Positions 17,599-53,157 of a DNA stretch of 64,000 nt are shown here, one piece after another. Positions within the stretch are counted from its first letter, which is position 1, and every line of letters starts with the position of its first letter. Source of the DNA: a virus (Duplodnaviria; Heunggongvirae; Uroviricota; Caudoviricetes); the IMG/VR virus record IMGVR_UViG_3300013307_000673; one strand, 5' to 3'. The position numbers were made by a program, and so were the translations under genes. The notes beneath the pieces are model-generated. The model did not search any database. It saw only the letters and a list, made by a program, of their open reading frames with translations, and was not told where the DNA came from.

Positions 17599-19719
17599 TT
17601 AAATCCATTCCGCGTTGATTTCAGGGAAATCATACACATCAAGATCACCTTCGCCCAACCCTACTACAAAGTCAGCGTCTTCCTTATCAAACACCTGAGT
17701 TTCCCCAGCCGCTTCGATATGAAGTTCAACTAACTCCTTCATAGTGATCTTTGTGTGCTTCATTTTCAGATACGCACGAAGCATATCCGTAGATGAGGCA
17801 ATGTTGTTGTTCAGATTGTTCACGGCTGATCCATATCCGTATGACGCATATCCTGAACCCGGAAGCACAGAATCCAGCCAAATAACTTCTCTCGTTTTCA
17901 GATCGAAGAAACAAGGAACAACTGTTGATCCATCACGTGTGATATCAAACTTCCCTCTCACGGTAGATGGCTCAAAAATCTCACCTGAGTCCATGCTCTC
18001 CCTTAACATAAAGCCAGCAAAGCTCTCTTCATGCTTCAGGAATGATGGCCCACGGTAAACACGCACATCCATTGCTGCATAACGCATTCCACTCTCAAGC
18101 GCATGTTTGATATCAATATCAATGAACTCACTCGCACCATGTGGAGCTGGCGCATACGTCTGATCACCAGAATGACGAGCATAGTTATTACGTAGTCCGT
18201 AATAAGCGATCTGGTCAAACTTAGTCAGATCTTCATTGATAAAGAATCCACTCAGATCCTGATCATCACCAATCCAGTGAATAAACATTCTCAGAATGTT
18301 TTTCTCAACATCTTCTGGAATCAAATCCAAAGGCACACGTGATCCACGTGCAACCGTCTTCTTATCCTCAGTGATAGACGCTAACTGAGCCGGAAGCAGC
18401 ACAGAGTAAGCCTCTGGCGCAATAAATACTTTCTTATCCTTAAGCAACGCCTTATCAGCAAACTGCTTGACCACCTCAGCTCTGATAACCGCTTTGATTC
18501 TCTCAACCACGCTTTCATCCAGCGTCTTCAATGAAGGCGCAAGCAATGCTTTACCTTTGCTTCCTGCAGTGAATACCACACGGTTTCCAGACTCGTTCAG
18601 AGAACGCCCCTTGAAGTGTCCCAGCACCTGAAGCAATACTTTCGTATCAACTTTCTCGGCTACTTTCGCAAACTCAGATACCACCCAACCCGCAGTTTTC
18701 GCATCGGAATCTCTCAGAAGCTTATCCAGCGCACGCGCAAAGACAGATGGCTTATTCACCAACTTAAGGACAGCAGCTTTCACATCGCCAGACTTAATAG
18801 CTTCCGCTACCACTGTCTCTGATGTTAAAACGTTTTTCTCGTTTCTGAAACGTGCCGCCACCTCAGCCACTTTACCGCCGAACTCACCTACATGAAGAGA
18901 ATGGAACGCTCTTTTCCACAATGCCTCGTATGCTTTCACATCAGAGATATTGATAACATCTTCCAGTGCTGATACCAAAGCACGACGCGTTTTACGGCTC
19001 AGCGATTTGAAACGCACTTTCTCTTTCAGCTCAATATCTGCATTAGACAAGGAAGCCATTACACGCAATACATCAGTCGTCGTCGAAACAACGCCATTGA
19101 TTGGCTCACCTGCTTTGATTAATGCTGTTGCAACGCGGCACAGCGTTTCTTTGAAAGGAATCTCTCCCTGATACTCAGCAGCCCAACCCTCAGCGATCCC
19201 CATATCCACAAACTCCACCAAAGACTCTGGCAGGCTGTTTTTAGACGCAAGTAGCTTAAAGAAGTATGCTTTCACATCTTCCATAGAGATAAGCCCTATC
19301 GTAGTCTTAGGATGCTCCTCTTTCAATGCTGGACGCTTAGCTTCCACGTATTCTGGTGTCCACTGACCAAATGACCAGTAGTGCAGAATAGCATTGATAT
19401 AAAGCTCAGCATCAGACGCTTCCATCACCTGACGTGGGAAGTTAGGATAGAACGCCTTCATCTTAACATGCGCACCTACACTCTCTTTCGCAAGCGTAAG
19501 AATAGACTGACAAGCTTTTACCGCATCTGATTCCTCAAGGGATGACAGGTGCTGATACAGCTCTTTTGACACAAGGAAACCAAAGTTATGCATCTCGTTA
19601 ATAAACGTGATAACATTCAGATTGAAAACACCCTCTTCTGATTTACGCGCAGAGCCATCTTCTACAACAACAGCAGACAGTTTGTTAAAAGCGATTTTGT
19701 TTACTAAGTTCATGTTCAT
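17599..19719 (-). CDS. large helical protein with C-terminal TerD domain (possible ROT/TROVE-TerD fusion)
   Basis: C-terminal DxDLS...HSGD...GASEFIDIDI TerD signature; N-terminal ~450 aa helical with TTTDVLR and WKR..HxGE segments. Confidence 0.75.
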   Translation of the reverse strand: MNMNLVNKIAFNKLSAVVVEDGSARKSEEGVFNLNVITFINEMHNFGFLVSKELYQHLSSLEESDAVKACQSILTLAKESVGAHVKMKAFYPNFPRQVMEASDAELYINAILHYWSFGQWTPEYVEAKRPALKEEHPKTTIGLISMEDVKAYFFKLLASKNSLPESLVEFVDMGIAEGWAAEYQGEIPFKETLCRVATALIKAGEPINGVVSTTTDVLRVMASLSNADIELKEKVRFKSLSRKTRRALVSALEDVINISDVKAYEALWKRAFHSLHVGEFGGKVAEVAARFRNEKNVLTSETVVAEAIKSGDVKAAVLKLVNKPSVFARALDKLLRDSDAKTAGWVVSEFAKVAEKVDTKVLLQVLGHFKGRSLNESGNRVVFTAGSKGKALLAPSLKTLDESVVERIKAVIRAEVVKQFADKALLKDKKVFIAPEAYSVLLPAQLASITEDKKTVARGSRVPLDLIPEDVEKNILRMFIHWIGDDQDLSGFFINEDLTKFDQIAYYGLRNNYARHSGDQTYAPAPHGASEFIDIDIKHALESGMRYAAMDVRVYRGPSFLKHEESFAGFMLRESMDSGEIFEPSTVRGKFDITRDGSTVVPCFFDLKTREVIWLDSVLPGSGYASYGYGSAVNNLNNNIASSTDMLRAYLKMKHTKITMKELVELHIEAAGETQVFDKEDADFVVGLGEGDLDVYDFPEINAEWI

Positions 19720-19785: not shown

Positions 19786-20076
19786 TCAGAACAACCGATT
19801 AATAACTTCGTCTTCCGAGACATCTTTTAATGGATTAGCCTCTCTGATCGCAGCTAACTGCTCATCAGTGAGTGGGCCATCATCTGGCTCATACCACGGC
19901 TCATCTTTTCCATAAGTTCCGTTTTCAATCTGTGTAAATAAGCACTCAGTGAAACTTTCCTCTGGTATATTTGTGGCACTACTATTTGCTCTTATCCATT
20001 CAATCTGCTCTGGAGTTAACGGACCATCGTCTGGCTCATAACACGCTTCTTGTTTACTACTAATTTCATTTTTCAT
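19786..20076 (-). CDS. small acidic protein with two YEPDDGPLTxEQ modules
   Basis: Internal duplication visible at DNA and protein level. Confidence 0.75.
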   Translation of the reverse strand: MKNEISSKQEACYEPDDGPLTPEQIEWIRANSSATNIPEESFTECLFTQIENGTYGKDEPWYEPDDGPLTDEQLAAIREANPLKDVSEDEVINRLF

Positions 20077-20281: not shown

Positions 20282-20776
20282 CTATGACAGCAACTTCTTA
20301 TCTGTTTCCTGACTGCTACGCTGCGCAACACTTCTGGTTGTTTTAACTAACTCATCAAGCTTCTCTTTAGGCATTTCCGTAGAGGTTTCTCTTCGTTTTG
20401 CCTTCAAGATTTTCCTGACATCTTCTTTAGTTAAAATACCCGCATCACGCTTTAGATCAAAAGTGTTTTTATTCCGGTAGTATTCATTATGAATATCAAC
20501 CTGCTTAACGGAGACAACTCTAATGTCTTTCTTAAGGTCTCTCCGGTTAAATGACTCACCGTTAAAATAACACTCAATAAATCGGTTATGCGCATCAAGG
20601 CCATTTGACATAAGCAGGTCAAATAAAACAACGCCTTTGTAGCCATGACTTTTAAGCAAACTTATCAGCAACTCATCACCCATAACTTCCATAATGGAAA
20701 ATGCGTAGTTTTTGCTTTTTACAACAAAGTTTTGGTTGTAATAGCACGCATCAAAGTCATCACACAGCCTAAACAT
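20282..20776 (-). CDS. rnlB: RnlB/LsoB-family antitoxin homolog (orphan)
   Basis: KGVVLFDLLMSNG..NRFI..FNGESF and GILTKEDVRKIL match RnlB (GEILFDLLCANG..NRFV; VLSPDDVRQVL) and LsoB (KGDVFFDLIIPNG; FNGEKF) as recalled. Confidence 0.7.
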   Translation of the reverse strand: MFRLCDDFDACYYNQNFVVKSKNYAFSIMEVMGDELLISLLKSHGYKGVVLFDLLMSNGLDAHNRFIECYFNGESFNRRDLKKDIRVVSVKQVDIHNEYYRNKNTFDLKRDAGILTKEDVRKILKAKRRETSTEMPKEKLDELVKTTRSVAQRSSQETDKKLLS

Positions 20777-20939
20777 ATAGTTAGATTTTGTTTCAAGTAT
20801 AATAGAAATAGGACTAACCTCTTTGTATATTAAATTATAAACTCACGTCTCTGCTTTAATACACCTTTACGGTTATCCCTTTTAGAGGATCACTTACGTG
20901 CCGGATGGCAACATAAGAGGTACGAAAGGTATAGGTGCC

Positions 20940-21415
20940 TGGAAAGCATTTTTGGTATTTTCGCCATTGAGTTGTAGAAGTATCCAAAAACTAAGCCAAG
21001 CATTTTCTAGCTGCACTTAAGGTAGCAAATCACCTTTATTTCAAGATCGCACTTAAGGTAGCGTATCACCTGAATCTCTTGTTTGGTAAGCATCTTTAGT
21101 TATTCGCCAATGAGTAGAAGTATCCAAAGAATAAGCCAAACGTTTATCGTCCCGCACTTAAGGTAGCGAATCACCTTATTTTTTAATCTCACACTTAACG
21201 GTAGTGACTCTCCGTTTGTTTCAACTTCGCATTTAAAGGCAGCGACTCTCCTTCTTTTATTAAAACCCGGAAAGCATCATTAGTAGTTCGCATAAGATTG
21301 TAGAAGTATCTAATGAATAAGCCAAGTTTTAAAAATCGTAATCTGGAAAGCATCTTTGGGATTTCAGTTTAAAGTTTGATTTAAGAGTAGAAGTATCCAA
21401 AAAATAAGCCAGATT
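20940..21415 (-). repeat. array of two interleaved structured RNA modules (4 type A, 5 type B)
   Basis: A (plus strand GGAAAGCAT...GTAGAAGTATC..TAAGCCA): 20940-20998, 21084-21138, 21268-21324, 21344-21411; B (GCACTTAAGGTAGC..TCACCT and variants): 21013-21035, 21049-21071, 21154-21176, 21191-21215, 21229-21253. Confidence 0.85.
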
Positions 21416-21488
21416 GTTTATCTCACCGGAGATTTTCATTCTACAAGGTATTCCTTATAAAACTATTTAGGCTCCGGCTTGATATTTC

Positions 21489-21517
21489 ATAGTATACAAA
21501 ATAATAATTGAAGTCAA
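21489..21517 (-). promoter_or_regulatory. sigma70-like promoter driving the repeat array
   Basis: TTGACT-N17-TACTAT (overlapping TATACT) on minus strand. Confidence 0.65.
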
Positions 21518-21550
21518 ATTATTTTTCACGATTTTCTAAAATATTTTATT

Positions 21551-21913
21551 TTAAGCAAAAGCCTGAGCGTAAGAGAACTTGCCTTGCTCAAAAACAACAT
21601 AAAAAGAAGAATAGCAAACTCTTTCTTCACCTTCAACTTCAACACATTGAGCTTGGTCGGCAAAGTCCATCATTTTTTGACGTGTTTTTGGCGAAACCTG
21701 TTGGGAAAGCCAGCAGCCATCCCGCTCAAATCCTTCTCCGTCATCTGTGAATGAAATCACCGGATAGCCTTCTTTGGTGTCAACATCTACAGAGATGCCC
21801 AAAAAACCTTGATACTCGATGGTGTCTTTTTCTATCATTGCCTTCAGACAACGTTCTAGTCTTGCGATAGCTATAGCTATAGCTATAGCTTCTGTTTTTT
21901 CTTGTGAATCCAT
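21551..21913 (-). CDS. hypothetical protein
   Basis: 120 aa; AIAIAIA from a GCTATA microsatellite. Confidence 0.7.
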   Translation of the reverse strand: MDSQEKTEAIAIAIAIARLERCLKAMIEKDTIEYQGFLGISVDVDTKEGYPVISFTDDGEGFERDGCWLSQQVSPKTRQKMMDFADQAQCVEVEGEERVCYSSFYVVFEQGKFSYAQAFA

Positions 21914-35196: not shown

Positions 35197-35270
35197 TGGT
35201 GTCAATGGCGGGATTCGAACCCGCGTCCAGAGTTTTAGAGACTCCTGCTTTACCGCTAAGCTACAAAGAC
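35197..35270 (-). tRNA. amber-suppressor tRNA (anticodon CUA)
   Basis: GTCTTTG TA GCTT AGCGGTA AAGC A GGAGT CT-CTA-AA ACTCT GGAC GCGGG TTCGAAT CCCGC CATTGAC A CCA; two U-U mismatches in acceptor. Confidence 0.85.
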
Positions 35271-52911: not shown

Positions 52912-53157
52912 TTAACGATTATATACTTCTACTTTCTTTTTAAAAAAACACTTAAACTCTTCTAATACCGATCTATAACCTTCAAGCACAACGTATCCTT
53001 TCTCTCTTATGAAAAACTTATGCACTTCTATTCCTTTAACATCAAGACCTAAATCCTTAGCCATATATTTAATCTCGCCACTCACATTAGCCCATCGCGG
53101 AGCATCATAGTGAAAGCTCATCGTTCCATAGCGATCTTCTTTGTAGTTCTCCAACAT
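52912..53157 (-). CDS. hypothetical protein
   Basis: 81 aa, GAGGT RBS. Confidence 0.7.
   Translation of the reverse strand: MLENYKEDRYGTMSFHYDAPRWANVSGEIKYMAKDLGLDVKGIEVHKFFIREKGYVVLEGYRSVLEEFKCFFKKKVEVYNR

Follow-up and report, generated by a model that had tools for sequence, protein, structure and literature searches.

The window, that is, the whole stretch of DNA that was analysed, comprises 64,000 nucleotides of a giant phage (megaphage; IMG/VR record IMGVR_UViG_3300013307_000673). Between positions 20933 and 21418, its minus strand carries four units of one type (A) and five of another (B) in the order A-A-B-B-B-A-B-B-A. Repeat finding and scripts agree on this layout, and they bear out the two-module array that had been recognised in an earlier reading of the letters without database searches (hereafter, the sequence-only reading). 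The array lies downstream of a predicted promoter and is followed on the same strand by a further RNA element with a predicted fold (C) and by genes for an RnlB-like antitoxin, a 96-aa protein and a 706-aa protein. In the following list, scores in bits refer to R1, a narrow covariance model of the A units:

21489-21517, minus strand: sigma70-like promoter (TTGACT, 17 nt, TACTAT), predicted by consensus scan and aimed into the array
21337-21418, minus strand: A1, with P1, internal loop, P2 and a long apical region (80.8 bits)
21261-21331, minus strand: A2, with P2 UCAUUAG/CUAAUGA and a P1 of up to 10 bp (78.6 bits)
21218-21255, minus strand: B1, ToxI-like pseudoknot, GGAGAGUCGCUGCC variant, nearest to toxI repeats of a Pantoea plasmid (L006)
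21180-21217, minus strand: B2, ToxI-like, GGAGAGUCACUACC variant, nearest to the other repeat type in that Pantoea toxI array
21143-21179, minus strand: B3, ToxI-like, ...GUGCGGGACGA variant, nearest to P. atrosepticum plasmid pPA21A (L005)
21077-21145, minus strand: A3, apical region ending in UUGGCGAAUAA (76.6 bits)
21038-21074, minus strand: B4, ToxI-like, GGUGAUACGC variant, nearest to Pseudomonas putida pGRT1 and Enterobacter plasmids
21002-21038, minus strand: B5, ToxI-like, classical GGUGAUUUGC...GCAGCUAGAAA variant, nearest to 6.4-kb E. coli/Salmonella plasmids (L254)
20933-21005, minus strand: A4, apical region ending in AAUGGCGAAAAUA (84.2 bits)
20860-20933, minus strand: element C, three-way-junction RNA of ~74 nt (predicted fold), kept in all six related loci
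20282-20776, minus strand: RnlB-like antitoxin gene (Pfam RnlB_antitoxin, E 2e-10), syntenic in all relatives
19786-20076, minus strand: 96-aa ORF, kept in synteny with 45% identity in the relative, no family match
17599-19719, minus strand: gene of the 706-aa protein (helical N-terminal part, TerD-fold domain and C-terminal helices, from the AF2 model and structure searches)

Synteny with the window was found in the 341-kb IMG/VR contig L007 and in four contigs reached via the RnlB-like protein (L400-L404). The promoter at 21489-21517 had already been placed there by the sequence-only reading and was recovered by the consensus scan; its -35 block, together with an A/T tract upstream of the -35, is kept in L007. 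A simple scan revealed no terminator-like site between the promoter and the next gene. The ~480-nt stretch would thus form, if transcribed as predicted, the non-coding head of one operon with the order promoter, RNA array, element C, RnlB-like gene, 96-aa gene and 706-aa TerD-fusion gene. Element C has no Rfam match. When the window, L400 and L401 are compared, a G-C pair of its first hairpin is replaced by A-U (and G-U), and in the L007 clade this hairpin is of another sequence. The RnlB-like gene stands without a cognate toxin beside it, and its product has a single relative in IMG/VR. Nine codons 5' of its ATG in the window (20776-20803, minus strand; I-I-L-E-T-K-S-N-Y) are conserved with the syntenic relative, in which an ATG precedes them. 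The ORF may start further upstream, where the start codon in the window would be AUU or AUA, ~13 nt past a GAGGU Shine-Dalgarno sequence.

Each A unit consists of an outer helix P1 (6-10 bp), a pyrimidine-rich internal loop (5' CUUAU, 3' URCUUW), a second helix P2 (7 bp) and an apical region that opens with an invariant AUACUUCUAC, closes with YGAA and holds a variable part between the two. The invariant single-stranded blocks of the unit are UGGCUUA, GAUACUUCUAC, YGAA and CUU..CC. Among the eight units of the window and one relative, 98.2% of the cells in P1 and P2 are paired and both sides have changed at 7 of the 14 pairs; none of 500 shuffles reached the observed value, and each slid register stayed at or below 57%. 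The figure is 98.3% for a wider set of 21 distinct units, drawn from six related genomes. The P2 stems quoted in the sequence-only reading are correct, whereas P1, which is really the full outer helix, had been reduced there to UGG/CCA. Its claim that selection acts on RNA structure rather than on a DNA repeat holds for both types, through covariation with the shuffle and register controls for A and through covariation of the pseudoknot for B.

Type A is a new, previously undescribed two-helix RNA family. A search of Rfam at E <=10 with both strands of positions 20750-21560, which included the abiF motif RF03085, Y_RNA and YrlA, returned nothing relevant. Blastn found no match to A in 72,556 plasmids, in 5,426 E. 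coli genomes or in phages (the latter at E <=1e-5), and R1 gave one 38-bit match in 151 Enterobacterales genomes, which lies inside a CDS and was taken as chance. The full A signature was in none of the matches listed by a variable-gap pattern scan of genome and metagenome contigs (single chance matches), and a second pattern scan, of viral sequences, retrieved chance matches only, besides the known relative. A conserved A 11-mer had no exact or multi-copy match in one Escherichia genome, which therefore gives no sign of a multi-copy (rRNA-like) host source; a second exact copy in the window, at 52923, falls at a gene end and was set aside as chance. Nothing on the A motifs was found in the literature. 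Candidate identities were rejected as well: TenpI or an AbiF-type RNA, with no Rfam abiF match and with comparison made to published descriptions rather than sequences, and HnrS, which is unrelated. The suggestion that the variable loops serve as guides found no evidence. Across the whole window, Rfam at the gathering threshold reported three tRNAs and nothing else. A tRNA with the anticodon CUA (35197-35270, minus strand), an amber suppressor that ARAGORN names tRNA-Pyl, has two tRNA-Leu genes next to it and is a hint that this phage reassigns or suppresses a stop codon.

Type B, judged by sequence and fold, is ToxI, the RNA antitoxin of the ToxIN abortive-infection systems. In plasmids, blastn matched the B units to repeat arrays that lie directly 5' of annotated ToxN/AbiQ type III toxins in the same orientation, and a unit-by-unit comparison showed that each of the five matches a different natural ToxI variant from enterobacterial or Pseudomonas plasmids. 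B1 and B2 are nearest to two repeat types within one toxI array 5' of ToxN on the Pantoea plasmid, and a single base in the 3' tail separates B3 from the 2T repeat of the pPA21A toxI array beside ToxN. The variant of B3 is also present in IMG/VR contig L266 (142,349 bp), and its GAC triplet fits the published pseudo-ToxI. B4 has 90-95% identity to the repeats 5' of ToxN on P. putida pGRT1 and the Enterobacter plasmids. B5 matches, save for a known UU/UUU length variant, the repeat core (AGGUGAU... to ...CUAGAAA) 5' of ToxN on L254-type plasmids, and also single or tandem copies in many enterobacterial phages. The five ToxN proteins cognate to these units share 36-54% identity with one another.

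The B units fold as an H-type pseudoknot, in which helix two joins loop bases to the tail. Among 18 distinct units, pairing is kept in 91% of the cells, three pairs show compensatory changes, and the covariation score was reached by none of 500 shuffles; the published U9-A25 pair of ToxI (PMC3475682) covaries among the B units. The hairpin and UAAGUG tail described by the sequence-only reading can both be seen, but the tail is not a separate element, since it pairs with the loop.

When the region was compared with phages by blastn, matches were to B units alone. The phages concerned are unrelated enterobacterial ones (Certrevirus, Sugarlandvirus, phage 7-11 and Kuravirus), in which the B units sit between genes or within tRNA clusters. 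In 17 other IMG/VR contigs with the ToxI core motif, 16 have one unit and one has two. In Klebsiella phage PWKp9S (L002, 1480-1545, minus strand), two ToxI-like units lie between a tRNA-Ile gene and its 5'-truncated second copy, which suggests decoy insertion by recombination within the tRNA cluster.

A toxI locus has tandem near-identical 36-nt repeats, a terminator and a cognate toxN; the window has five different variants, and toxN was not found. Neither the window nor the relative's syntenic 18-kb region yielded a ToxN by tblastn, and an HMM search of the relative's 341-kb contig was likewise negative, a weak negative because the control genomes did not respond either. The five different variants and the missing toxN therefore point to a mimic (pseudo-ToxI) rather than a toxin-antitoxin locus, and the B units are, as predicted from their sequences, a multi-variant pseudo-ToxI decoy set. 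Pseudo-ToxI is of a kind already known from phage PhiTE; five variants in one array are unusual. ToxN processes ToxI at AA^AU; in the array, sites of the AAAU type can be seen after just two of the units, B4 and B5. As a point against B activity, single, non-identical units amid foreign sequence may escape processing by ToxN.

The six syntenic megaphage loci (window included) have exactly four A units at the same positions, with an ortholog of A2 in five of five related genomes, whereas their B content differs. B4 is present in the window and absent from L400 and L401, which are close relatives; the B units seen in L400 include decayed ones, and the L007 clade has one B unit between A1 and A2 plus an extra 145-nt segment. 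Type A is therefore a stable frame and type B a changeable cargo. The extra segment (L007 1815-1950, minus strand; also in L402 and L404) lies between A2 and the next B and contains two more hairpin- or pseudoknot-like units, one of which ends in UUGAAAAA; it has no plasmid counterpart, and its units may represent additional antitoxin-like RNAs that have gone unrecognised.

Homologues of the 706-aa protein were located by tblastn in nine records, which represent eight different phages. When R1 was run over the flanks of four homologues, the sole notable matches, all weak, were directly beside the gene (Rhodococcus phage Weasels2, Xanthomonas phage XacN1 and LR745208). Inspection by eye resolved them as diverged A units with P1, internal loop, P2, UACUUCUAC or UCCUUCUAA, a variable part, P2', internal loop and P1', and similar units were recognised by eye in untranslated gaps beside the gene in a human-gut phage fragment, Mycobacterium phage WXIN and Rhodobacter phage RcXuper, the last with an exact AUACUUCUAC. 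In total, the 706-aa homologue is flanked by A-like units in each of the six other phages that were examined (phages of Rhodococcus, Xanthomonas, Mycobacterium and Rhodobacter, and two uncultured ones). A broader covariance model, R2, built from 13 units, recovers ten held-out units at 14-36 bits. Applied to four whole phage genomes (135, 385, 485 and 148 kb; 1.15 Mb), R2 proved specific genome-wide: ten of ten matches at E <=1 lie within ~500 nt of the gene. Beyond these four genomes, L405 and L409 have units beside the gene as well. WXIN was missed by the filtered whole-genome scan, and its units are a 13.7-bit match combined with reading by eye. Each genome has 2-5 diverged paralogs, which stand upstream of the gene in five lineages and downstream in two, always in the untranslated flank.

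Among phages with A-like units, B was found only in the enteric megaphages; outside them, no ToxI-like unit was noted in flanks read by eye. The covariance-model search for co-occurrence with the TerD-fusion gene that the sequence-only reading had called for thus upholds the association for type A only. Its proposal that the units are tied to the TerD-fusion protein has strong comparative support for A, through adjacency in distant phages and occurrence nowhere else in the four genomes, and fails for B, which is ToxI. A single co-evolving system of A and B is not borne out either: type A is, on the comparative evidence, ancestral to the 706-aa protein family, and B is a cargo of the enteric megaphages. 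Types A and B are unrelated to each other.

The AF2 model of the 706-aa protein, made from 30 sequences, has a pLDDT of 88 and a pTM of 0.86. Residues ~463-647 form a TerD-type beta sandwich (2qz7, Z 12.1; 2kxt, Z 11.8; Foldseek probability 1.0), so that the name 'helical TerD fusion' given by the sequence-only reading is right, although the Pfam TerD HMM stays below threshold. Pfam and PHROGs assign the protein no function, and no Pfam match to TROVE was obtained. Structure comparison by VIA-align placed the Ro60 structures of D. radiodurans Rsr, Xenopus Ro with RNA and Thermus-phage Ro60 at ranks 3, 4 and 7 of 48,161 chains, with Z 6.2-7.3 and 303-322 residues aligned across the whole model, where Z values of 6-7 can reflect a common helical arrangement. 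A profile of the family searched against PDB sequences matched neither Ro60 nor TerD, and nothing relevant on TerD together with non-coding RNA was found in the literature. The family has more than 700 homologues, from phages that infect Proteobacteria or Actinobacteria and from giant phages of the gut. Homologues with 43-49% identity are also annotated in yeast genomes (Spathaspora, Scheffersomyces and Sugiyamaella), which could reflect either transfer or contamination. In XacN1 and RcXuper (L407 and L410), the homologue has a nucleotidyltransferase gene and tRNA genes close by, neighbours that would fit a role of the module in RNA metabolism.

The position of the A units beside the gene in distant phages suggests that they are probably the RNA partner of the 706-aa protein. 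Because this protein has a TerD fold and, over its whole length, weakly resembles Ro60, the most likely role of A is that of a Y-RNA-like partner. The protein would bind the conserved stem and loop of A, and the two would form a ribonucleoprotein like that of Ro60 and Y RNAs, with RNA paralogs beside the gene, a conserved stem and a variable 'effector' loop.

Adjacency to the gene could equally mean cis-regulation, and the A units might be cis-acting operon elements, such as autoregulatory sites, a leader or trailer, or RNase III/RNase E processing or stabilising punctuation, that control the TerD-fusion gene and release the B units. Their constant place in the untranslated flank would suit such a role, as would the framing of the B clusters in the array. 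P1, the mismatched internal loop and P2 make up a ~20-bp irregular duplex like phage RNase III sites such as those of T7, and each A unit has three single-stranded RCUU motifs, a sequence that fits the preference of RNase E. Nevertheless, we regard this reading as unlikely: each genome has retained several diverged paralogs across long evolutionary distances, no cleavage-type duplex lies near the invariant loop sequences, the units are not always on the same side of the gene (and in the window the array is separated from the 706-aa gene by two others), and one A-like unit contains a whole tRNA-like insert. For these reasons, A looks more like a set of stand-alone RNAs than a leader.

It is decidedly improbable that A is a second class of decoy, either a mimic of a host RNA antitoxin or defence RNA (TenpI, CptI or AbiF-type) or a substrate decoy for a host RNase, within one anti-defence cassette together with pseudo-ToxI and RnlB. 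The interleaving of A with proven look-alikes of antitoxins, followed by the RnlB-like gene, and the parallel between four diverged A paralogs and five B variants would agree with it. Against it stand the lack of a counterpart by blastn in the plasmids and E. coli genomes, by covariance model in the 151 Enterobacterales genomes (a single match, inside a CDS) and in Rfam, the abiF motif included; moreover, A also occurs in phages of Actinobacteria, Xanthomonas and Rhodobacter, always by the same phage gene, which is not expected of a host-specific mimic. That the repeats are double-stranded DNA sites (iterons or operator arrays) with incidental RNA structure is hardly credible, despite the repeated units, the invariant 10-nt blocks and the nearby promoter, since compensatory changes hold two helices at 98% paired cells though the helix sequences differ, the register controls collapse, the same helices are kept in phages with almost wholly different primary sequence, and the B units copy an RNA whose function has been solved.

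The reading of A as Y-like partner RNAs of the 706-aa protein and of B as pseudo-ToxI, together heading one operon, is held here as a whole with moderate confidence. Each B unit copies a different natural ToxI antitoxin pseudoknot. When the phage stops host transcription, host ToxI would decay, the B RNAs would keep the matching ToxN RNases inhibited, and abortive infection would fail. With the RnlB-like gene, the B units would constitute an anti-toxin cassette that disarms toxin-antitoxin abortive infection in the enteric megaphages. They were presumably inserted among older A units, and the B set shifts between close relatives. Five ToxI variants side by side would represent a broad-spectrum set of RNA antidotes, with a content that changes from one close relative to the next, and would extend the single documented case of pseudo-ToxI to a cocktail strategy. 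For the 706-aa family, which has more than 700 unstudied members without a Pfam domain, the analysis provides a link to a specific undescribed RNA family. The protein is present in cultivable phages (Weasels2, XacN1, RcXuper and WXIN), so that A and the 706-aa protein are a directly testable candidate phage ribonucleoprotein, possibly a distant cousin of Ro60/Y RNAs. The array also calls for caution, as interleaved repeats of one array can differ in origin and partner.

Three known systems invite comparison with the locus. Phage T4 encodes Dmd, an anti-toxin protein against RnlA/LsoA. The window phage likewise has a gene for an antitoxin protein, of the RnlB family, without its toxin; in contrast to Dmd, the predicted product is a homologue of the host antitoxin RnlB itself, with a function predicted from sequence. 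As this gene follows the array, the operon would combine protein and RNA antidotes.

The pseudo-ToxI of phage PhiTE is an established phage precedent for type B (PMC3475682). In both cases, ToxI homologues with the same pseudoknot occur in a phage in which no toxN was detected, and B3 has the GAC triplet that PhiTE pseudo-ToxI carries at ToxI positions 27-29 (PMC3475682). PhiTE, however, has 1.5 repeats of one ToxI variant, which were expanded under selection, and its pseudo-ToxI is active only with more than one repeat (PMC3475682), whereas the window has five single units of five variants that correspond to different ToxN subfamilies. Furthermore, the B set of this type varies among close relatives, and activity of its single heterologous units is predicted.

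The A units and the 706-aa protein differ from the Ro60/Y RNA systems in several respects. The protein has a TerD beta sandwich in place of the vWA domain, no TROVE signature by Pfam and no Ro60 match by the PDB profile search, and the A units, at ~60-85 nt, are shorter than Y RNAs. To our knowledge, Y RNAs have no known counterpart of the invariant AUACUUCUAC / UCCUUCUA block of A, and the Rfam models of Y_RNA and YrlA (RF02553) do not match the A units of the window (E <=10). A GNCGAA motif has been proposed for Rsr recognition in YrlA (PMC4201824). The similar GGCGAA is present in A3, A4 and one XacN1 unit and absent from A1 and A2, and it lies in the apical loop rather than in the 5' stem strand. 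TROVE is absent from four of five other phage genomes searched. The related 341-kb megaphage has a separate 578-aa ORF with a TROVE (Ro60) match above the Pfam cut-off (G001:C1:28713-28922), so that a canonical Ro may already be present there, and the megaphage lineage may have both canonical Ro60 and the TerD-fusion protein.

The likenesses lie in architecture. As in Ro60/YrlA modules (PMC4201824), including that of the Thermus phage Ro60 (PMC12135203), several small structured RNAs stand beside one large protein gene, a neighbourhood found for every R2 match. Like Y RNAs, A is built on a long stem that its 5' and 3' ends close, and it combines a conserved non-Watson-Crick segment with a large loop of variable sequence. 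Covariation supports P1, the internal loop and P2, which offer a candidate binding site, and the apical region is variable. One A-like unit, in Weasels2 (L408 5170-5304), carries T-arm-like and D-arm-like tRNA segments in its apical region, a tRNA-like module as in YrlA, and has a weak Rfam YrlA match (26.4 bits, E 0.077; gathering threshold 69). Some A units share the GNCGAA-like motif, and the 706-aa model aligns over ~300 residues to three Ro60 structures. We propose, tentatively, that the 706-aa protein and the A RNAs might be a new widespread phage ribonucleoprotein, in which a Ro60-like helical protein with TerD for vWA would hold 2-5 Y-like RNAs with target- or effector-recruiting loops, and whose array in the enteric megaphages would have become a landing pad for antitoxin decoys.
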